Sequence record: OR896831.1
Origin: Escherichia phage BubbaBully
Direction: 5' to 3' (one strand)
Length of the DNA stretch: 51,209 nucleotides
The notes under the pieces were generated by a model. The model was not told the DNA's origin and searched no databases. It saw nothing but the letters and a program-made list of their open reading frames with translations. Position 1 is the first letter of the stretch; each line of letters opens with the position of its first letter. This document shows positions 5,808 to 48,685 of the stretch, in pieces. The translations under genes were made by a program, and so were the position numbers.

Positions 5808-5835
5808 TTGCACGTTTAACAAAAAGTGCTATCAT
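5808..5835 (+). promoter_or_regulatory. sigma70-like promoter for major capsid gene (TTGCAC-16-TGcTATCAT)
   Basis: -35 TTGCAC 5808-5813, 16-bp spacer, extended -10 TG-n-TATCAT 5827-5835; the reversed box lies within the spacer and -10. Confidence 0.45.
5815..5832 (-). promoter_or_regulatory. conserved box, reversed orientation, overlapping capsid promoter
   Basis: TTTAACAAAAAGTGCTAT is the reverse complement of the box; followed by 8-bp hairpin 5839-5859 and strong RBS. Confidence 0.5.
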
Positions 5836-7605: not shown

Positions 7606-7976
7606 TGAATTATGCTAACATTGCACGAATGGCTAAATCTGGCATTGCATTTTTTAGTGATCGCAATGGCGTGTTTAAGCTTATCACTAGCGGAGGTGGC
7701 GTTGAGATTGTCGGCGGCGTTGAGGTTGAAAAGCCGGAGCAGTCAACAACAATTAAGGGGCTTATCCGAGCGCCAAAGGTTCGAGAGGTTGACGGCGAAA
7801 CAATCCGCGTAACTGACAAGCTCGGAGTTTTTGACGCTGATGTTGAAATCATGAACGGAAACCATATCGATGTTGATGGTGAGCGCTACGTTGTTGTTGA
7901 GGCAAGACCAATCAGGCCAACAGGGATCACAGTTGCTTATCGTCCAATCCTGCGGAGGGTTGCTGTTCATGGCTAA
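7599..7976 (+). CDS. putative head closure protein
   Basis: 125 aa; overlapping start with upstream gene; synteny only. Confidence 0.35.
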
Positions 7977-9502: not shown

Positions 9503-9528
9503 CACTCTACCAAATTCAAACAATCCAC

Positions 9529-9547
9529 TTTTAACAAAAAGTGCTAT
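9529..9547 (-). promoter_or_regulatory. conserved box, reversed orientation, in tail-operon leader
   Basis: TTTTAACAAAAAGTGCTAT immediately upstream of the RBS of gene G. Confidence 0.5.
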
Positions 9548-15479: not shown

Positions 15480-15515
15480 GTGCAAACCGATAAACAGCAC
15501 AAAAGGTTAAAAGAT

Positions 15516-28510: not shown

Positions 28511-28951
28511 TTAGCTATTCGTGCTGTTTATGAAGTCCGACTCTTTCACGACGCGCAGCATTTCGTATCGGTCGCATTTCGTCGTTAGCGCTTTTCCGTT
28601 GGAGTCAAATCTCAGGTCAGGACGGCAGAATGAAGCTCGATATCCCTTGCAGCCGTTTCGCTTATAGTCGGCGTGAACCTTTTCGGCTCCAGAAACTGAA
28701 ATCATCCCGCGCTTGCGCCACTGCTGAATAACTTGGTGAGTAACCTTTAAACGCCTTGTCATTTCCGCCTGAGATCCGTAATATTCGCAAACGGCATCTA
28801 GACGAGCACGCAATCCGGCTTTGACTTCATCCTTTAGAACGTAGTAGCCTGTTTTGCGCTTGCGTTTTTTCTTGTCTTTACCGCGCTTTACCCCGTTGTT
28901 GCCATTGATTGTGCGCTTGTCAATTTCGCCAGTTGATGCAGCAATTTTCAT
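28511..28951 (-). CDS. putative HTH DNA-binding protein with basic N-terminus and Cys cluster
   Basis: Start at internal ATG 28951 (GGAGG RBS); track ORF N-terminus overlaps the box of the divergent promoter; HTH-like segment MTRRLKVTHQVIQQWRKRGMIS. Confidence 0.45.
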   Translation of the reverse strand: MKIAASTGEIDKRTINGNNGVKRGKDKKKRKRKTGYYVLKDEVKAGLRARLDAVCEYYGSQAEMTRRLKVTHQVIQQWRKRGMISVSGAEKVHADYKRNGCKGYRASFCRPDLRFDSNGKALTTKCDRYEMLRVVKESDFINSTNS

Positions 28952-28964
28952 ATTAAAACCTCCG

Positions 28965-29008
28965 ATAGCACTTTTTGCTAAAAACATTCAAAACGTAGGC
29001 GCTATTAT
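28965..29008 (+). promoter_or_regulatory. box promoter (box + 22-bp spacer + TATTAT) for helicase gene
   Basis: ATAGCACTTTTTGCTAAAA 28965-28983; -10 TATTAT 29003-29008; 32 nt upstream of the helicase start. Confidence 0.55.
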
Positions 29009-31043: not shown

Positions 31044-31460
31044 ATGGTTACTGACAAAGGCGATTATCTGGAATACTACGAACGGGATCCGAGCGATACG
31101 CGCAAGGAGGATTCGCACCAGGTTGATTGTGTGGCGTGGTTGCGCCACCACTACCCGCACTTGCTTTTCTGGCACACTGTCAACGAGGGGAGCAAGACAA
31201 TAACCGCCGCTCTGCGTGACGAACAGGCCGGATTGCTCAAGGGTGTTTCCGATTTCGTTATCCTGATTGGTTCCGGTAAATATCCGTTTGCAGCCATAGA
31301 GCTAAAGCAAGCCAACAAATCAGGGAAGCGCAAAGCTTCACCAGTCAGCGATAACCAGAAAGCTTTCTTGAGCAAGGTTAGGGCGCTGGGTGGATTTGCC
31401 GCTGTGTGTTATGGCGTGAAGCAATTCAAACTTGCAATTGCAGATCTCTTGCAGGAATAG
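31044..31460 (+). CDS. VRR-NUC domain nuclease
   Basis: Start ATG 31044 just after helicase stop; D...ELK PD-(D/E)XK-type motif. Confidence 0.6.
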   Translation: MVTDKGDYLEYYERDPSDTRKEDSHQVDCVAWLRHHYPHLLFWHTVNEGSKTITAALRDEQAGLLKGVSDFVILIGSGKYPFAAIELKQANKSGKRKASPVSDNQKAFLSKVRALGGFAAVCYGVKQFKLAIADLLQE

Positions 31461-31529: not shown

Positions 31530-31979
31530 ATGAAAAAACAAATTGTAGGCGCTGCGATAATAATCGCATCTGTATTGGTGGCATGGAAAGCACCATCATT
31601 AATAGAGAGCATGGTTAAAGATCCGATTGACATTGATCTTAATCGAAAGGCTTGCATTATGGCATCAAAGAAATCAGTTAATGATTTCGTTATCACTAAC
31701 GAATATGAACTAAGCGATAAGGCAAGGCGAAAGGCTTATCTTGTTATTTCTCAGCAGTGTAAGCTTTCTGTTTATTCCGAGAACGGAGAGCACGCAAGAG
31801 AGCCTAAAACCTTAAAAACAGCAGGAAGTATGTTTATTGATGGACTTGATTATGAGGAATCATTGACGGTTCGATATGCCAAAAAGCGCTCAGACTTTAA
31901 CGGAAAAATTGTTGCAAAAATGGGAGTCAAGGAAGTCTCAAAGTGGATAGAAAACTTTGAGGACGCAAACAGAAAATAG
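31530..31979 (+). CDS. hypothetical exported protein (N-terminal signal peptide / anchor)
   Basis: 149 aa; hydrophobic N-terminal segment IVGAAIIIASVLVAW. Confidence 0.5.
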   Translation: MKKQIVGAAIIIASVLVAWKAPSLIESMVKDPIDIDLNRKACIMASKKSVNDFVITNEYELSDKARRKAYLVISQQCKLSVYSENGEHAREPKTLKTAGSMFIDGLDYEESLTVRYAKKRSDFNGKIVAKMGVKEVSKWIENFEDANRK

Positions 31980-32019
31980 CACGAATTGCTAAAACGCCGG
32001 ATGATGAATCCGGCATAAT
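31976..32019 (+). promoter_or_regulatory. box promoter (box + hairpin + CATAAT)
   Basis: Box overlaps TAG stop; 7-bp stem GCCGGAT/ATCCGGC 31996-32014; -10 at 32014-32019. Confidence 0.55.
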
Positions 32020-32050
32020 ACACCCAACGAAAACAAATGAGGATTTGAAA

Positions 32051-32305
32051 ATGTTAAAAGATATCTCTAAAGCGGTTTACTGGATTTTTGTTGTTCTTAT
32101 CGCTCTCTTTATTGTTTCGCTGATAATCTCTCTTGTTGCGTTTGGTGTTGATATAATCTTTGGTGTTGTTGGAATCTTCCTTGCTGTTATATTTGCCCCA
32201 ATGCTATTAACAAAGGCCGCCGCAAGTGATGCGGAAATCGAAGCGCCAAAGACTGAGGTCAAATCTGACACTAGCAACGCAGCTAAATTCTACATGATGA
32301 AATAA
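32051..32305 (+). CDS. hypothetical membrane protein
   Basis: Start ATG 32051; two predicted transmembrane segments. Confidence 0.5.
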   Translation: MLKDISKAVYWIFVVLIALFIVSLIISLVAFGVDIIFGVVGIFLAVIFAPMLLTKAAASDAEIEAPKTEVKSDTSNAAKFYMMK

Positions 32306-32315
32306 GGATCGAAAA

Positions 32316-33062
32316 ATGGCTAAAGACATTCTGGATAACTCAACAATCGACGGTATCGAGCAGGTTGATGAAATGGACTTTCACGAATTGCAGCACGGAA
32401 AATATTCAGATATAGCTCTGCGTTCGGGTGGTCATTACCAGGCCGTGAAGCCTTGCCAGTATTACAAGGTTACAGGCAACCGCTATGCTGGGAGCAAAAC
32501 TCCAGATGTTGTCCGTGACCTTTGGGCTACACCTCGCGATGTTGTTGCGTACATGGAGGAGCGCTACGGAAAATATGACCTTGACGCAGCAGCCAGCGAG
32601 GATAATAAGGTATGTGACAAATTCTACAGCAAGGAAACAAACTGCTTAAAGCGCTGGTGGGGAAGTAAAAAGCACGTATGGTTGAATCCTCCATACAGCA
32701 ATCCAGATCCGTTTGTGCTAAAGGCAATTGAGCAGATGGAGCACGATAATCAGATCGATATCTTGCTTGCAGCCGACAACTCAACAGCATGGTTTAGCGA
32801 CGCGCAGAAACACGCGGCGGAAATTATCTGGATCACTGGCGAAACCTGGAAAGATGAAGATGGGCGCGAGTATTCGCGAACCGGACGCCTAGCGTTTATT
32901 TCCGGTCTGACAGGTGAGCCAGTTAGCGGCAACAATAAAGGCAGCGTCATTTTCGTCATGCGCAAATTGAAAGAGGGCGAAACGCAACAAACTCACTACG
33001 TGAAAATCAGCGATATTTGCCCGTCAGTTAAAAACAAACGAGCCAAAGCAAGGAGCTTTTAA
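32316..33062 (+). CDS. dam: DNA N6-adenine methyltransferase (Dam-like)
   Basis: 248 aa with NPPY motif (WLNPPYS) characteristic of N6-adenine methyltransferases. Confidence 0.75.
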   Translation: MAKDILDNSTIDGIEQVDEMDFHELQHGKYSDIALRSGGHYQAVKPCQYYKVTGNRYAGSKTPDVVRDLWATPRDVVAYMEERYGKYDLDAAASEDNKVCDKFYSKETNCLKRWWGSKKHVWLNPPYSNPDPFVLKAIEQMEHDNQIDILLAADNSTAWFSDAQKHAAEIIWITGETWKDEDGREYSRTGRLAFISGLTGEPVSGNNKGSVIFVMRKLKEGETQQTHYVKISDICPSVKNKRAKARSF

Positions 33063-33172
33063 TGAAATATGATATTGCAGCACTTGGAATACTTTGTGCA
33101 TTCATGATCGTAGGTGGCTTTTGTTCTTATGCACTCCTGGCGTTAATCATCAAAATAGGGGAGTTGATCTAA
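33062..33172 (+). CDS. small hydrophobic protein (36 aa), not in ORF track
   Basis: ATG overlaps dam stop (TAATG) and its stop overlaps the next ATG (TAATG); one predicted TM helix. Confidence 0.35.
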   Translation: MKYDIAALGILCAFMIVGGFCSYALLALIIKIGELI

Positions 33173-33420
33173 TGAGTGAGAGAAATGTAGCACTAAACGA
33201 GGTTGGGTTATTCCTTCTGTATCGCGCTATGGTGTGCCAGGCTGTCGATCTAAACCCGCATATCAAGGATGCAATAGAGGTTGACCCGTGGGAGTTTTCC
33301 AGCGCCCTAGACATGAGCTTTGAGGAAACCGCAAAACTACCTCTTGAGAAGTGGCACATCAAGATTGCTGATGATCTCGATGAAATGTGGCAAGACCTTA
33401 AAAAGCGAACGGCTCACTAA
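33172..33420 (+). CDS. hypothetical protein
   Basis: Start at ATG 33172 (translational coupling); 82 aa. Confidence 0.5.
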   Translation: MSERNVALNEVGLFLLYRAMVCQAVDLNPHIKDAIEVDPWEFSSALDMSFEETAKLPLEKWHIKIADDLDEMWQDLKKRTAH

Positions 33421-33464
33421 ATAGCACTTTTTGTTAAAAATGCCCGGCGAAAGTCGGGCATAAT
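33421..33464 (+). promoter_or_regulatory. box promoter (box + hairpin + CATAAT)
   Basis: Box begins directly after TAA stop; stem GCCCGGC/GTCGGGC; -10 at 33459-33464. Confidence 0.55.
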
Positions 33465-33496
33465 CATTTCCAACGAAAACCACTGAGGAAAACGAA

Positions 33497-33706
33497 ATGA
33501 AAATCTACAGCAAAGCAGCTTTGGAAATCGCACAGCAAGCAGCACGCGAGGCGGTGGAGTTAGGGGTGAAAAACGGCGGTGATTTTGATTGGGGTATGGC
33601 TATGATCTGGCTGAAAATCGCAACCGGACACGCGCCAGTTTTCAAGTATGAGGAGCGCGGGATTCGCTCAATCGTAGCGGCTATGGAGGGCAAAGATGAA
33701 GGTTGA
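33497..33706 (+). CDS. hypothetical protein
   Basis: 69-aa ORF with CA-rich leader and GAGGA RBS. Confidence 0.5.
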   Translation: MKIYSKAALEIAQQAAREAVELGVKNGGDFDWGMAMIWLKIATGHAPVFKYEERGIRSIVAAMEGKDEG

Positions 33707-33944
33707 GCAAGGCCGCGAGGCCGTTTGGAATCACGCCAAAGAAACAGGAATGGCAGACGATATAGCACGAATTGCTAAAATATTTGATCTGGCTGATGTT
33801 AGTATTATCAGCAACGGGAAAATGACTTACTTACACGAGAGGCCGCGCAAAATGCACCGTGTGCCAGCAATCCCGACAAAAATCGACTTCAAAGAAGCAA
33901 TGGCAAAAATCAGAGAGCCGAAAAAGTATTACAAAGGAGAATAG
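33696..33944 (+). CDS. hypothetical protein (contains an in-frame copy of the box)
   Basis: 82-aa ORF; codons for IARIAK are the box sequence. Confidence 0.5.
   Translation: MKVEQGREAVWNHAKETGMADDIARIAKIFDLADVSIISNGKMTYLHERPRKMHRVPAIPTKIDFKEAMAKIREPKKYYKGE
33762..33805 (+). promoter_or_regulatory. intragenic box promoter (box + 22 bp + TG-n-TAGTAT)
   Basis: Exact box inside CDS 33696-33944 with extended -10 at 33797-33805. Confidence 0.45.
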
Positions 33945-33949
33945 TTATC

Positions 33950-34021
33950 ATGTGGCGCTTGCTTGTTCTTCCAATGCCCGTTATCATTGCCGCCGTTGTT
34001 ATGTACGCACTTGTTATGTAA
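33950..34021 (+). CDS. very small hydrophobic peptide (23 aa), not in ORF track
   Basis: ATG after AAAGGAGAA RBS; single hydrophobic stretch. Confidence 0.25.
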   Translation: MWRLLVLPMPVIIAAVVMYALVM

Positions 34022-34038
34022 TTTAAGAGGAAAAGTTA

Positions 34039-35157
34039 ATGATTCAGAAAATGACAGACCAGCAGTTTAAAGAAGCACGAGCAGAGGGCAAAACCTACAA
34101 GCAGATCGCGGAGGAGTTCGGCTTGAATGTTCGCACCGTTGAGCGCCGCGCGGCACGACTTGCCCGCCAAGGTGAAACTAACACGAAAGGCGCACCAGGT
34201 TTTGCGGTTGTTCGTGAGTCAGTCCTGACCCGCGCAAACGGCGAAGAAGTGATGCGCTGGACTATCACCAACAAAGATAAAGAGCAGTTGGAAGCGCTCA
34301 TGCAAGCCGCGATGGAGGCATTCGCTGAGGAAGTGCCACGCCTTGAGCCTCAGCCGGAAAGCCACAAAGACTACAGCGAAAGCCTTGCGCTATATCCGAT
34401 CTTTGATATGCACATTGGTGCAATGGCTCATAAGCACGAGTGCGGCGAGAATTGGGACACGGCAACCGCCGAGAAGGTCATGAATGACTTCTTTGATTAT
34501 GCTGTAGAGTGTGCGCCAAACAGCGAAAAGGCTGTGCTCCTGATTGGTGGCGATATGCTTCACAGTGACGGCCTTGAGGCTGTAACACCTGCTAGCGGTC
34601 ACGTTCTTGATCAGGATAGCCGCTATGCCAAACTGGTTTATGTCGCAATCCGAGCTACTCGTCGCGCTATCTCCTTGATGTTGACCAAACACAAAGAGAT
34701 TGAGGTTCAGGTTATCGAGGGCAATCATGACCAGTCAGGGATGATCTGGCTACGCGCAGCAATGGCGGCGGCATACGAGAACGAGCCACGCGTGACGGTT
34801 GATGTTTCTCCTCGCGTAGTGCATCACACGCAGTACGGAAAAACCTTCCTTGCTTATCACCACGGGCACACTGTGCGCAAGCCGGAGGCGTTGTTGATGA
34901 TGTGCGCGTCGGATTGGCGAGAGGACTTCGGGATCTCAAAATCAATGTATGCTCACGTTGGACATTGGCATCACCAGACCGTAACAGAAACCAGCCTGGG
35001 GATTGTTGAAGTTCACAGCACAATGGCGGCTAAAGATGCATATGCAGCTCGCGGAGGTTGGCGCTCTCGTCGTCGCGCGGCGGTTATCATCTACGACAAA
35101 GAGCACGGCGAGATCGGGCGCTTCATGTTCTACCCTGAAATGATGGAGTCAAAATAA
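34039..35157 (+). CDS. metallophosphoesterase (calcineurin-like) with N-terminal HTH-like region
   Basis: 372 aa; motifs DMH, GGDMLHSD, GNHD, HHGH; N-terminal KTYKQIAEEFGLNVRTVERR resembles an HTH. Confidence 0.65.
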   Translation: MIQKMTDQQFKEARAEGKTYKQIAEEFGLNVRTVERRAARLARQGETNTKGAPGFAVVRESVLTRANGEEVMRWTITNKDKEQLEALMQAAMEAFAEEVPRLEPQPESHKDYSESLALYPIFDMHIGAMAHKHECGENWDTATAEKVMNDFFDYAVECAPNSEKAVLLIGGDMLHSDGLEAVTPASGHVLDQDSRYAKLVYVAIRATRRAISLMLTKHKEIEVQVIEGNHDQSGMIWLRAAMAAAYENEPRVTVDVSPRVVHHTQYGKTFLAYHHGHTVRKPEALLMMCASDWREDFGISKSMYAHVGHWHHQTVTETSLGIVEVHSTMAAKDAYAARGGWRSRRRAAVIIYDKEHGEIGRFMFYPEMMESK

Positions 35158-35327
35158 TGAAAGTGAAATGCGTTGAGAATTCATCTAAAACACTGCCTTA
35201 CTACGAGGGCTTTGTGTACGAGGCTGAGCCATTGCCTGGCGGGATGTACAAGATTAAAGATGAATCAGGGCAGCATATCATTGCGCCGCTAAAAGGACAT
35301 TATCTGGAGTTTTTACAGATTGATTAA
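35157..35327 (+). CDS. small hypothetical protein (56 aa), not in ORF track
   Basis: ATG overlaps upstream stop (TAATG); open frame to TAA at 35325-35327; terminator follows. Confidence 0.4.
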   Translation: MKVKCVENSSKTLPYYEGFVYEAEPLPGGMYKIKDESGQHIIAPLKGHYLEFLQID

Positions 35328-35351
35328 CATTTAATTTCATAAGCTTACAAA

Positions 35352-35378
35352 GGGTTAGCATTTGCTAACCCTTTTTTT
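35352..35378 (+). terminator. intrinsic terminator upstream of lysis cassette
   Basis: GGGTTAGC/GCTAACCC stem followed by T7. Confidence 0.6.
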
Positions 35379-35454
35379 ATTGTTTTGTTTTTGCTCATTG
35401 ATGGTTAACATAAACTCGCTTAACTATTGACATTTGACACAAGGAGATCGGATT

Positions 35455-35670
35455 ATGAGAGAATTTTTAAACGCAGCAACTACAGGAACCGGAGGCGCAT
35501 CATTGACGGGAGCGGCGACGGGGCAAATGACAATCGCGGTTGCTGGTCTTATCCTAATGGCGGCTTTTGGTTTTTGGGGCGCTTATCTGCGCTGGAAGGA
35601 TAGCAAGGCGCTGCGAGAGGCTTTGGATCGTGAAGATATCAAAGAGGCAATTAGAATCAGGGGGAAATAA
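35455..35670 (+). CDS. holin (pinholin-like)
   Basis: 71 aa from ATG 35455 (AAGGAG RBS); two hydrophobic segments and charged C-terminus; immediately upstream of SAR endolysin. Confidence 0.6.
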
Positions 35671-35672
35671 TC

Positions 35673-36167
35673 ATGAGTTTACAGAGGAGCGCGGCATACG
35701 CTTTATTTGGCGCAGCGCTCTCGTTGACTCCTCCGCTCCTGGAGGAGATCGAGGGCATTCGCTACAAGCCATATAAAGATATCGCTGGAGTCTGGACGGT
35801 CTGCGCGGGTATTACCGGATCTGATGTTGTGCTGGGTAAGACGTACACGCAGAGAGAATGTGATGCACTTCTTGCCAAGCATATCGGGATTGCAAAGGCA
35901 GAAGTCGATAAGAGAGTGAAGGTTGAGATCCCGGACACAATGAGGGCGGCGATGTATAGCTTCACTTACAACGCTGGCACTGGAGCGTTTCGCAAGTCAA
36001 CCATGCTCAAGAAGATCAACAATGGTGATCTTTATGGAGCGTGCGACGAGCTTTGGAAATGGACGTATTATTACAATCCAAAAACGGGCAAGCGCGAGAA
36101 GTCCAAAGGACTAAAAAACCGTCGCGCGGTTGAGTACAAATATTGCACTAAGGATCTGAAAAAATGA
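35673..36167 (+). CDS. SAR endolysin (GH24 lysozyme)
   Basis: T4-lysozyme-like catalytic pattern EGxRxKxYxD...T; N-terminal weakly hydrophobic signal-anchor-release-like segment. Confidence 0.75.
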
Positions 36168-36559
36168 AACGATTAGCTTTGGCGGTACTGGTTGCCGCCT
36201 CTCTTTCTGGTTGTTCAGCGTCAAGCGCTCTGAGTGATCTTATCGGCAGCAAGCCGGAAATCACAGCACAGGCCGGATCCGAAAACGTAAAGCAGACAGT
36301 AGGCGTTACGGCTAAAAATGACGAGAGCAGCAAGCAGGAAAACACGATCAAGGATTCGCAGGTTGGAAAGGTTGACTCCTCCAACAAAAAGAAAGTGAGC
36401 ACATCAAGCATCCAGGCTGAGACAATCACAGCCGACAAGATCGAGATCAGAAACAGCGATAGTGATTTGTATGTGATGTTCTTTGCGCTGGCTTGCTTTT
36501 TTGTTGCTGGCTTTGCGGCTGGCGTTGTTTGGAATTGCAGAAAAAATAAAGGGGCATAA
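36164..36559 (+). CDS. unimolecular spanin
   Basis: 131 aa with N-terminal lipobox (LSGCS) and C-terminal transmembrane helix; last gene of lysis cassette. Confidence 0.65.
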
Positions 36560-36570
36560 TGCCCCTTTTT
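36551..36570. terminator. bidirectional terminator hairpin containing the spanin stop codon
   Basis: GGGGCA-taa-TGCCCC flanked by A-run and T-run. Confidence 0.6.
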
Positions 36571-36762
36571 CTATTCTAGGAGTCGGACGTTAATCAATAC
36601 TACGCCGTCCTCGTCGTGCAGATTGTGCTCCTTTGCTGGATTGGCTCTCATGTCGCTATACAGGATCAGGAGTAGCGCCGCAATCATTTCGTCATGCGAT
36701 ACCGAATTTACGGCGCAATGCTTCATAATCGCATCTATTAGATTTTGTGTTGAATAATTCAT
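36571..36762 (-). CDS. hypothetical protein (doubtful)
   Basis: 63-aa ORF overlapping the 3' end of the upstream ORF in another frame. Confidence 0.3.
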   Translation of the reverse strand: MNYSTQNLIDAIMKHCAVNSVSHDEMIAALLLILYSDMRANPAKEHNLHDEDGVVLINVRLLE

Positions 36763-37084
36763 CGTCGCTTAACTCGTCAAGATGAAACAGATCGTAAATG
36801 TATTTGTTGCTTTCACCTTCAAGGCTATACAACTCAAACCCAAACGGCCTCTTGCGCGAGCCTTTGCACGTCACCACGCCTTTATCTATCCCAAGATATC
36901 CCAATGTAGCCATTCGCGGTATAAACTCAAGAGAAACGCTTGAGGCGAATTTACGAGGCGTCATATTGGCGGCTCTCGCGAGCCGCTCACATTCTTTGTG
37001 CTTAAAAACAAATCTCGCTAAGTGCTGGCGATTAAACCAATCGTAACTTTCGCAAAACTTATACAGATCCAGCAGAAACATCAT
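36692..37084 (-). CDS. hypothetical protein
   Basis: 130-aa ORF immediately downstream of the P-loop NTPase gene. Confidence 0.45.
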   Translation of the reverse strand: MMFLLDLYKFCESYDWFNRQHLARFVFKHKECERLARAANMTPRKFASSVSLEFIPRMATLGYLGIDKGVVTCKGSRKRPFGFELYSLEGESNKYIYDLFHLDELSDDELFNTKSNRCDYEALRRKFGIA

Positions 37085-38665: not shown

Positions 38666-38693
38666 CTTAAAGTCTCCTTGTTGGTTGACCCGT

Positions 38694-38737
38694 ATTATAG
38701 GTCAACCATCTTACAGCCTTTTAGCAATTCGTGCTAT
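38694..38737 (-). promoter_or_regulatory. box promoter (box + 22 bp + TATAAT in hairpin loop)
   Basis: Box 38719-38737 overlaps TAG stop of upstream gene; TATAAT 38694-38699 in loop of GGTTGACC/GGTCAACC. Confidence 0.55.
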
Positions 38738-43260: not shown

Positions 43261-43304
43261 ATAGCACTTTTTGTTAAAAACGCCCCGCGCGAGTGGGGCA
43301 TAAT
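43261..43304 (+). promoter_or_regulatory. box promoter (box + hairpin + CATAAT)
   Basis: Box 43261-43279; stem GCCCC/GGGGC; -10 at 43299-43304. Confidence 0.55.
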
Positions 43305-45147: not shown

Positions 45148-45359
45148 TTATCACGCACAACGTAGAGCCGAGCGCAAACACCGCACAGGATATGATTGCT
45201 GGAATGCCGCCAAAATCGCACAGAATGGTGCGTGTGTGGGGATTTCAGGGCAATGTAAGCCAAACGCTCAAGGAAATTTTAGCCCTGCCAGAAGTCGATG
45301 CAGCGCTTGTGGGGGTGCATACAAATGAATATGTTTCTTTCCACATCGTGACAAAATAG
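45144..45359 (+). CDS. hypothetical protein
   Basis: 71-aa ORF; TAG stop inside the next box. Confidence 0.45.
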   Translation: MIITHNVEPSANTAQDMIAGMPPKSHRMVRVWGFQGNVSQTLKEILALPEVDAALVGVHTNEYVSFHIVTK

Positions 45360-47235: not shown

Positions 47236-47433
47236 ATGGCTGGTAACACACTGAAAACTATCGGCGCAGTCCTGTTAATCGTTGGCGGCTCACTGCTTAC
47301 TGAGCCAGGTTTCTTTAACTCAGTAGGCACATTTGCGGTGTTGTGTGGCGGTCTTATCGGCGGCTACATGGACGGCAGGAGAGCTGGGCGGCGCGAGGCT
47401 TTCGGCGGTGAAGATAAAAATCCGATAAAATAG
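47236..47433 (+). CDS. small membrane protein
   Basis: Start at ATG 47236 (AAGGGG RBS) within track ORF 47116-47433; two hydrophobic segments. Confidence 0.4.
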   Translation: MAGNTLKTIGAVLLIVGGSLLTEPGFFNSVGTFAVLCGGLIGGYMDGRRAGRREAFGGEDKNPIK

Positions 47434-47473
47434 CACGAATTGCTAAAACTTCCGCGAGGGCATTTGGTATAGT
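47430..47473 (+). promoter_or_regulatory. box promoter (box + 22 bp + TG-n-TATAGT in hairpin loop)
   Basis: Box 47430-47448 overlapping TAG stop; TATAGT 47468-47473 within GAGGGCA/TGCCCTC hairpin. Confidence 0.55.
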
Positions 47474-47515
47474 GCCCTCATTGAAGCAAAGCAACCAATC
47501 AAAGGAGATAACGAA

Positions 47516-48000: not shown

Positions 48001-48611
48001 AATATGTAAAACCAACGACAAGCGGTTTCGGTTACACGGCTGGCAAACTATATCAGATCCTGTTGACCTATGAGGGCGGTCAATTTGTTGTTAAGAACGA
48101 CAAAGGGGTTAATCAGATTATTCGCGGCGACGGCAAGCCGTCATTACGGTTAGAGCGTGGCGGAAAGTTTGAGATTGTGGATATTCCAGAACCTGGCGAG
48201 GCTCAAGAGTACGCAGTTGAAACAGCAAAAAAGACAAGCGAGGCTCTACGCGAGCACGTCAAAGGGATTGTGAAAGATTCTATTGTTAGCGCGGCGTTGC
48301 CTGGTGGCGTGCTTCATAAGGCAGTAAGCGAAAGCGATCACTTGCGAGCAGTGCGCCAAATCGCAGCAAACGCAACAGAGCTTGCAAGCGAGATTGCATC
48401 AGGTCGATATGATGCAAGTCTCTATATGAGACTTGAAAAGGCAGAACGCGAGGCGGAGCAGCACAAAGCGGATTGCATCAAAGCGGAAGCAATTGTTGAT
48501 CAGCTTTATGACATATTCCCGCAGGTGCGCAATCCAGAGCAATTGATTGCAGCAGTTCGCAGTTCGAAAATCTTTGCTGATGCGTTTTTGGAACTGCAAA
48601 AGGTTAAATAG
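47997..48611 (+). CDS. hypothetical protein
   Basis: Start at ATG 47997 overlapping upstream stop; 204 aa. Confidence 0.5.
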   Translation: MKYVKPTTSGFGYTAGKLYQILLTYEGGQFVVKNDKGVNQIIRGDGKPSLRLERGGKFEIVDIPEPGEAQEYAVETAKKTSEALREHVKGIVKDSIVSAALPGGVLHKAVSESDHLRAVRQIAANATELASEIASGRYDASLYMRLEKAEREAEQHKADCIKAEAIVDQLYDIFPQVRNPEQLIAAVRSSKIFADAFLELQKVK

Positions 48612-48651
48612 CACTTTTTGTTAAAGCTTCCGCGAGGACATTTGTTAAAGT
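48608..48651 (+). promoter_or_regulatory. box promoter (box + 22 bp + TAAAGT in hairpin loop)
   Basis: Box 48608-48626 overlapping TAG stop; TAAAGT 48646-48651 within GAGGACA/TGTCCTC hairpin. Confidence 0.5.
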
Positions 48652-48685
48652 GTCCTCATTGAAGCGAAACACGGAGATTTAGGAA

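Follow-up and report, generated by a model that had tools for sequence, protein, structure and literature searches.

The window, by which we mean the complete stretch of 51,209 nt analysed here (Escherichia phage BubbaBully, OR896831.1), carries in the interior of a conserved gene a compact module at 33762-33816 that probably works as an internal class II marbox promoter, activated by a host regulator of the MarA/SoxS/Rob (RamA) family. Positions 32000-36500 are 90-93% identical to Enterobacter phage N5822, to the Escherichia phages Henu7, IsaakIselin and JohannLBurckhardt and to Klebsiella phage Samwise, all of which are classified in Drexlerviridae, Tempevirinae, Henuseptimavirus; judged by these relatives, the window is the genome of a T1-like virulent siphovirus.

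In the mechanism that we propose, a monomeric host activator of this family with its two HTH motifs would bind the 20-bp marbox, centred at about -41, would replace the missing -35 contact and would recruit sigma-70 RNA polymerase to TGtTAGTAT. Transcription would start near 33813, inside the gene 33696-33944, and the transcript would comprise a mini-ORF, an HTH-phosphoesterase gene and a DUF7244 gene before ending at 35349-35374 (Table 1). The internal promoter would add to, and could act independently of, an intergenic marbox promoter situated 340 bp upstream. Residues 23-40 of the 82-aa protein would be encoded by promoter nucleotides, which would thereby be under dual constraint.

Table 1 Features of the embedded module and of its surroundings (positions in the window).
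Feature	Positions	Strand	Remark
Upstream intergenic marbox promoter	33421-33464	+	ATAGCACTTTTTGTTAAAAA, 18 nt with GC-rich hairpin, CATAAT
Gene containing the module, 82 aa	33696-33944	+	PHROG 2817 of unknown function, E 2e-35
20-bp marbox ATAGCACGAATTGCTAAAAT	33762-33781	+	encodes I-A-R-I-A-K(-I)
Recognition element 1, GCAC	33765-33768	+	distal to the -10
Recognition element 2, GCTAAA	33774-33779	+	proximal to the -10
18-nt spacer	33782-33799	+	holds the TG of the extended -10 (33797-33798); no -35 hexamer
-10 hexamer TAGTAT	33800-33805	+	counterpart in micF: TAGAAT
CAACG start-site motif	33812-33816	+	common to intergenic modules
23-codon hydrophobic mini-ORF	33951-34022	+	nearest ORF 3' of the embedded promoter that has a Shine-Dalgarno sequence
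Phosphoesterase/"DNA repair exonuclease" gene	34039-35157	+	phrog_704, E 5e-148
DUF7244 small protein gene	35157-35327	+	E 3e-28; last gene of the unit
Intrinsic terminator	35349-35374	+	11-bp stem and T run; would end the transcript

Class II marbox geometry of the embedded module

The exact 19-mer ATAGCACGAATTGCTAAAA is found at 33762-33780 on the plus strand, and the -10 hexamer follows 19 nt past the 19-mer and 22 nt past the TTGCTA inside it, which is the same box-to-10 spacing as in the other copies of the window that have a -10. A sequence-only reading had described an exact box with a 22-bp spacing and an extended -10 within the coding sequence 33696-33944, where it encodes IARIAK; this description is borne out by the sequence, the codons in frame being ATA GCA CGA ATT GCT AAA. 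The distance of 22 bp stands as such, but not as an over-long sigma-70 spacer, since the box is a class II marbox devoid of a usable -35. A scan with the sigma-70 consensus found no -35/-10 promoter at the embedded site, the hexamer 17 nt 5' of the -10 is AAAATA (2/6 to the -35 consensus), and TTGCTA, the sole hexamer of the TTG type, is separated from the -10 by 22 nt instead of the canonical 16-18 nt. A sigma-70 promoter that uses TTGCTA as its -35 was therefore rejected: its spacer would be outside the usual range, and the marbox geometry accounts for the distance.

By its sequence the embedded box is a marbox, the type of site to which MarA, SoxS and Rob, activators of the host, bind. Its core GCACGAATTGCTAAA (33765-33779) agrees at 14 of 15 positions with the MarA consensus GCACTAATTGCTAAA that was derived from ChIP-seq data (Sharma et al. 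2017, PMC5684230), an exact 15/15 match to which is present in related Drexlerviridae, and it shows no mismatch to the degenerate marbox gcannwwntgnnaaa (PMC12052159). In class II promoters a forward marbox overlaps the -35 region (PMC12052159). The embedded box is in forward orientation, YAAA being the element nearer to the -10 and GCAC the more distant one, and its centre falls between -40.5 and -41.5, according to the start point that is assumed, so that it overlaps the -35 position. The E. coli micF promoter, which we retrieved for comparison because the cryo-EM structures with Rob and SoxS were determined on this class II promoter, consists of ACAGCACTGAATGTCAAAAC, 18 nt, TAGAAT, 7 nt and +1, the latter being the 8th nt past the -10 hexamer. 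The phage modules likewise combine a forward, asymmetric 20-bp box with GCAC and YAAA, an 18-nt spacer and a -10, and the embedded -10 starts with TAG as does that of micF. The micF box has been placed at -41.5 in the study of SoxS, and G-47 and A-45 of its GCAC are contacted by Rob according to the study of Rob (cryo-EM structures: PMC9178005, PMC9638938). If the -10 is taken as -12 to -7, the phage GCAC matches the positions of the Rob-contacted GCAC of micF. Every feature by which a class II marbox promoter is recognised at the sequence level (box, orientation, position, -10 and poor -35) is present at 33762-33805. In contrast to micF, the module belongs to a virulent phage and not to a host stress gene, is situated wholly within protein-coding sequence and is one of ≈17, apparently most of the promoter set of the phage; binding of the host factor to it is putative.

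The embedded -10 (4/6 plus TG) is weaker than the -10s of the other modules. It is replaced by TAGCAT in Henu7 and in the related loci L036 and L038, and TATTAT at 33803-33808 is an alternative. The motif CAACG also stands 5-6 nt 3' of the -10 in the modules at 31979, 33424, 39580 and 43264, and the transcript of the embedded promoter is predicted to start at about 33813. Note that many modules (31979, 33424, 39580, 41899, 43264 and others) show a leader motif (C)CAACGAAA(C) 5-6 nt past the -10, the version of the embedded copy being CAACGGGAAA; this motif may be a mark of the start site or an element of the 5'-UTR. A hairpin GCTGAT-N9-ATCAGC around the embedded -10 had a borderline z of -1.97 and is not conserved in other box-bearing lineages; we attribute it to chance.

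Marbox modules in the window and in related phages

Seven exact copies of the 19-mer and four with 3 mismatches are present in the window against a chance expectation of 0.03, and none of 100 shuffles of the window reached 11 copies. The degenerate core GCACNNWNNRYYAAA occurs 22 times (0.71 expected), and 17 of these cores belong to complete modules with a -10, a leader, a Shine-Dalgarno sequence and an ATG. The -10 (TATAAT, CATAAT, TATAGT, TATTAT and similar) is located 17-19 nt past the 20-bp box, the leader often opens with the motif mentioned above, and the ATG is ≈76 nt away from the start of the box. Phage T1 has 17 such cores (0.4 expected), TLS has 20 and lambda has none. Promoters of the -35/-10 consensus type are not enriched in the region 31800-36800.

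The same element is known from phage TLS, where direct repeats of 21 nt with the consensus aaATAGCACnnnTTGnTAAAA have been described (German, Kropinski, Misra and colleagues 2024, PMC11447400). On the plus strand, on which the operon is encoded, the embedded site reads gatATAGCACGAATTGCTAAAA and fits this consensus; of the A, T and G subgroups that were distinguished (PMC11447400), it corresponds to the G subgroup (GAA) and is oriented with transcription. The repeat was also reported for T1, Rtp and Rogue1 (PMC11447400). The function of the repeat was left open between a stoperator, an enhancer site and an UP element, three copies "wholly within genes" were set aside, MarA, SoxS or a marbox were not mentioned and only three sigma-70-like promoters were found in the re-annotation of TLS (PMC11447400). 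We found no paper that links Drexlerviridae or T1-like phages to the marbox, MarA, SoxS or Rob; the repeat itself is described in the TLS paper only, and its reading as a marbox was met in no paper that we found. The norm for the TLS repeat is an intergenic position ≈76 nt before a start codon. The 33762 copy departs from this norm: it lies inside a coding sequence, and the start codons that come after it and have a Shine-Dalgarno sequence are 189 nt (33951) and 277 nt (34039) further on. TLS gp64, the homologue of the protein encoded by 33696-33944, has no embedded copy.

Several further properties of the modules were observed. In 13 of the 17 modules a stable GC-rich hairpin occupies the 18-nt spacer or surrounds the -10 (z < -2, mean z -3.3), for example at 33441-33459, 31996-32013, 43281-43299, 38690-38715(-), 47449-47480 and 48627-48658. 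The stem in the 33424 promoter co-varies in relatives (CCCGG/TCGGG versus CCAGG/TCTGG, and other stems), and equivalent hairpins are annotated as rho-independent terminators in the RefSeq record of T1. It looks as if terminator and promoter were combined in one composite module, with the terminator of the upstream unit placed in the free class II spacer. Six upstream genes use the TAG of a box (A-TAG-CAC) as their stop codon (1570-1572, 31458-31460, 31977-31979, 45357-45359, 47431-47433 and 48609-48611), and a TAA directly adjoins the box in most other modules. An overlap of coding and regulatory sequence at gene ends is thus the rule in this phage, of which the 33762 copy is the extreme case.

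Not every core is part of a complete module. Forward cores for which no class II -10 was found lie at 1569-1588, 7620-7639 and 15494-15513; the last of these, GCACAAAAGGTTAAA ("A" subtype), is located at the start of the large tail gene and is conserved in TLS (24911). Two reverse marboxes are present inside the rightward structural operon: 5813-5832(-) directly precedes the ribosome-binding site of the capsid gene (5877), and 9528-9547(-) that of gene 9563. They have syntenic counterparts in T1 (15069(-) and 18833(-)) and in TLS (DR7). To read them as class I (reverse) marboxes was rejected, as the start codons are too close. The reverse copy at 9530 is followed by TAGAGT at 18 nt and then by a minus-strand terminator hairpin; a short antisense RNA from this copy is possible.

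Synonymous sites in the gene that contains the module

ORF 33696-33944 is a real gene, since a homologue is annotated in all annotated relatives, matches to it occur in 264 phage records, it belongs to PHROG 2817 and its third codon positions change ≈5 times as often as the first and second ones. A single-sequence AlphaFold model of the 82-aa protein had a mean pLDDT of 55. The entire embedded module lies within this ORF, and among the 17 complete modules of the window only the 33762 copy is wholly inside a conserved coding sequence on the same strand. Given the peptides IARIAK and DVSI and the codon usage of the genome, the probability of exactly these codons is ≈4e-6; ATA (11% of the Ile codons) and AGT (8% of the Ser codons) are rare codons within the module. 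Two lineages that are devoid of the module keep IARIAK by means of other codons (GCC AGG ATA GCA) and have no -10, hence the peptide does not dictate the DNA. A truncated 40-aa isoform starting from ATG 33822 was also considered and was rejected in view of a poor Shine-Dalgarno sequence and of the Leu or Phe found at codon 43 in several box-bearing lineages.

For a codon-level comparison we used 77 sequences (12 GenBank phages, 64 IMG/VR contigs and the window), 70 of them distinct, and defined as carriers the 30 distinct sequences with a consensus marbox core at codons 23-28, the remaining 40 being non-carriers. TAnnAT is correctly spaced in all 30 carriers, of which 27 also show the CAACG start motif; in the 40 non-carriers the marbox core is missing, and the -10 and the start motif are lost alongside. 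The carriers represent at least four deep lineages of Tempevirinae and an outlier, L042, whose protein is only 56% identical; the BASEL phages Bas10 and Bas11 carry the module. The module is absent from the clades of swan01 and L022, from TLS and from a large clade (L043-L076), while T1 has no homologue of the gene at the corresponding position.

Changes at each third position were counted by the Fitch method on a tree calculated from the rest of the gene. In carriers the box showed 0.67 changes and the -10/start segment 1.5, compared to 3.77 in the rest of the gene (Mann-Whitney, p 3e-4 for the box and p 3e-3 for -10/start). The values for non-carriers were 2.0, 3.88 and 3.59, respectively, and their -10/start segment did not differ from the rest (p 0.39). 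The spacer behaved in the opposite way, with 5.2 changes in carriers and 2.0 in non-carriers, and is the most variable part of the gene in the relatives. As the carriers were chosen by the box itself, there is some circularity in its own depletion, of which the test on the -10/start segment is free. The same pattern is apparent in pairwise comparisons: the window differs from carrier lineages in 0-2 of 9-10 synonymous codons in box and -10 (≈20-65% elsewhere), and from lineages devoid of the module in 5-6 of 7-10 synonymous codons of the module. Substitutions that are tolerated in carriers are mostly at degenerate positions of the marbox. In L039, L040 and L042 the embedded box is of the CTAAT subtype at the cost of an exchange of Arg for Leu, and in L040 and L042 this subtype matches that of their own intergenic box.

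An instructive case is L017 (IMGVR_UViG_3300045988_030853, CDS offsets 66-110), in which the protein is 98% identical and the module has decayed. Synonymous changes affect 5 of 10 module codons compared to 6 of 41 codons elsewhere (p 0.027), and neither the second recognition element nor the TG nor the -10 is left intact by them. L017 is a recent loss of the module and this loss was possibly selected. The many related lineages and the close relative L017 that do without the module show that it is dispensable. Selective maintenance of the embedded module is the best reading of the codon data. The sequence-only reading had postulated that the same nucleotides are under coding and regulatory constraint and had named free synonymous variation of the box codons as one outcome that would speak against this; in carriers the synonymous sites of the box and of the -10/start segment turned out to be nearly frozen, and free variation of the box codons was not seen.

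These data bear on two alternatives in which the site would not initiate transcription. We consider it very improbable that the copy is incidental and functionless, having arisen from coding or being kept identical by recombination or gene conversion with other copies. Recombination functions are encoded by the phage (T1 and TLS carry genes of the RecE and Erf type), some lineages are devoid of the module, and coding alone can generate a core: TAAGCACGTTTGGTTAAATC is a marbox-like core in the dam genes of T1 (L078, 39344-39363) and TLS (L079, 39002-39021), arising from the codons of the conserved Dam motif SKHVWLN, AAGCACGTTTGGTTAAAT, with no -10 at the right spacing. The dam example demonstrates that a bare core can occur in a coding sequence by chance, unlike the full 33762 module. 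The low probability of the codons given the peptide argues against an origin from coding, conversion cannot maintain the -10/start segment, which is not repeated and is conserved only together with the box, and the module persists where the proteins are down to 56% identical. A protein-binding site that has no role in initiation, acting as a roadblock or "stoperator"-like element against read-through or as a decoy that titrates the activator, appears to us improbable, albeit less so than an incidental copy. Stoperator or enhancer roles were suggested by the authors of the TLS study (PMC11447400), and four cores of the window are not followed by a correctly spaced -10 (1572, 5815-, 7623 and 15497), which indicates that box-only sites exist. 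However, a pure binding site does not need a -10, a TG and a CAACG motif, all of which are conserved at synonymous sites and are lost together with the box.

The preferred reading, an internal promoter, has precedents. Promoters inside coding sequences are known from compact phages, within genes in phiX174 and overlapping gene ends in T7. There, too, the same nucleotides code and initiate, and an internal start provides distal genes with a transcript of their own. The embedded promoter differs from them in its proposed dependence on an activator and in that the constraint is seen by synonymous conservation and natural loss variants.

The transcription unit and the presumed activator

Downstream of the embedded promoter no further marbox was found before the terminator 35349-35374. 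On account of this and of the strength of the terminator, the transcript would cover the mini-ORF, a comparable version of which is annotated in K50PH164C1, the phosphoesterase gene and the DUF7244 gene. The proposal that the promoter would serve the small ORF and the phosphoesterase gene is upheld in this respect, but it would not be their sole promoter as the marbox promoter at 33421-33464 is present upstream. The box of the latter is exactly 76 nt before ATG 33497; it is kept in all but 2 of 64 related IMG/VR loci, 245-310 nt 5' of the start of the coding sequence, and no terminator was predicted between the two promoters. The embedded promoter is best read as redundant with the intergenic one. 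An embedded copy that compensates for a weak intergenic promoter was not apparent as a pattern among the loci compared.

The product of 34039-35157 has an N-terminal HTH resembling sigma-70 region 4 at residues 13-40 (Pfam Sigma70_r4_2, E 1.8e-6, 27.9 bits, above the curated cutoff of 25.7), an unexplained DNA-binding module on an enzyme of the nuclease type. The lysis cassette (holin, endolysin and spanin) directly past the terminator has no marbox and is preceded by a sigma-70-type promoter, TTGACA-18-GATTAT at 35427-35456 (10/12), one of the few good ones of this type in the region.

The binder of the box is, as we infer from the nature of the site, a host protein of the MarA family, and the start of transcription at the embedded promoter is likewise inferred. 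Rob is the most plausible host factor. It is constitutive and abundant in the host, and promoters that are presumably early carry the same box, so that a resident host factor would be the simplest binder. On the other hand, unstressed cells contain little MarA and SoxS and keep most of their Rob sequestered, and T1-like phages grow well in ordinary media, which counts against a host activator.

The same low availability of the host activators speaks for an alternative that we regard as unlikely, although less so than the two discussed above, namely a real internal promoter whose box is read by a phage-encoded factor, its likeness to the marbox being convergent or a mimicry. Candidates are a Cro-like regulator (28511-28987) situated between two divergent box promoters, 28510(-) and 28968(+), a phage "transcriptional regulator" that shows a weak HTH of the Cro/YdaS type, or an unrecognised protein, as many small ORFs have no assigned function. 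The pseudo-dyad TAGCA-N5-TGCTA within the embedded box would suit a dimer. Activator-dependent promoters that resemble the present modules in having a good -10 but no -35, and in which the site of the activator overlaps the -35 region, are also known for phage-encoded activators, Mor/C of Mu and MotA/AsiA at the middle promoters of T4. The MotA box TTTGCTTTA is centred at -30 and 11-13 bp away from the -10; this geometry is not that of the present modules, in all of which TTGCTAAAA ends 19 nt from the -10. No phage-encoded activator of the AraC/XylS type emerged from tblastn and HMM searches of all ORFs of the window, which returned only noise (best E 0.17 and 2.8; the queries and a small HMM were built from MarA, SoxS and the Rob N-terminus), and Pfam found no HTH_18 or HTH_AraC domain in 18 window ORFs. 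Against a phage factor, the match to the marbox extends to its asymmetric positions, with 15/15 in relatives, and geometry and orientation are identical to those of micF. Moreover, the conservation of the TLS repeat is highest at ATAGCAC and TAAAA (PMC11447400), which fits two half-sites of a monomer and not a symmetric dyad, and the presence of the box in presumed early promoters requires a binder that pre-exists in the cell.

Significance for T1-like phages

Returning to a host activator as the preferred reading, we see about an even chance that T1-like phages (Drexlerviridae) run most of their transcription via consensus class II marbox promoters using MarA, SoxS, Rob or RamA of the host, with Rob as the resident factor, in place of -35/-10 promoters or of a phage factor. 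The embedded copy provides a clean case, found in nature, of coding and regulatory constraint on the same nucleotides, in which selection would be strong enough to freeze synonymous sites and even to influence a residue of the protein (R or L, depending on the subtype of the box), and it comes with built-in controls in the form of lineages that have the peptide but not the promoter and of one recent decay (L017). If such a use of host activators is true, it would explain why almost no sigma-70 promoters have been found in genomes of Drexlerviridae, and the published "direct repeats" of TLS would gain a function. A classical phage family, whose transcription programme has long gone unexplained, would then depend on a stress-response activator of its host, and phage development would be tied to bile, oxidative or antibiotic stress and to multidrug-resistant hosts of the mar/ram type. 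Regulators of the MarA/RamA/SoxS family are often over-produced in multidrug-resistant Enterobacteriaceae (PMC5684230). As these regulators respond to salicylate, bile salts and oxidants, drug resistance and the conditions in the gut could, if the proposal is true, modulate the growth of therapeutic Drexlerviridae.
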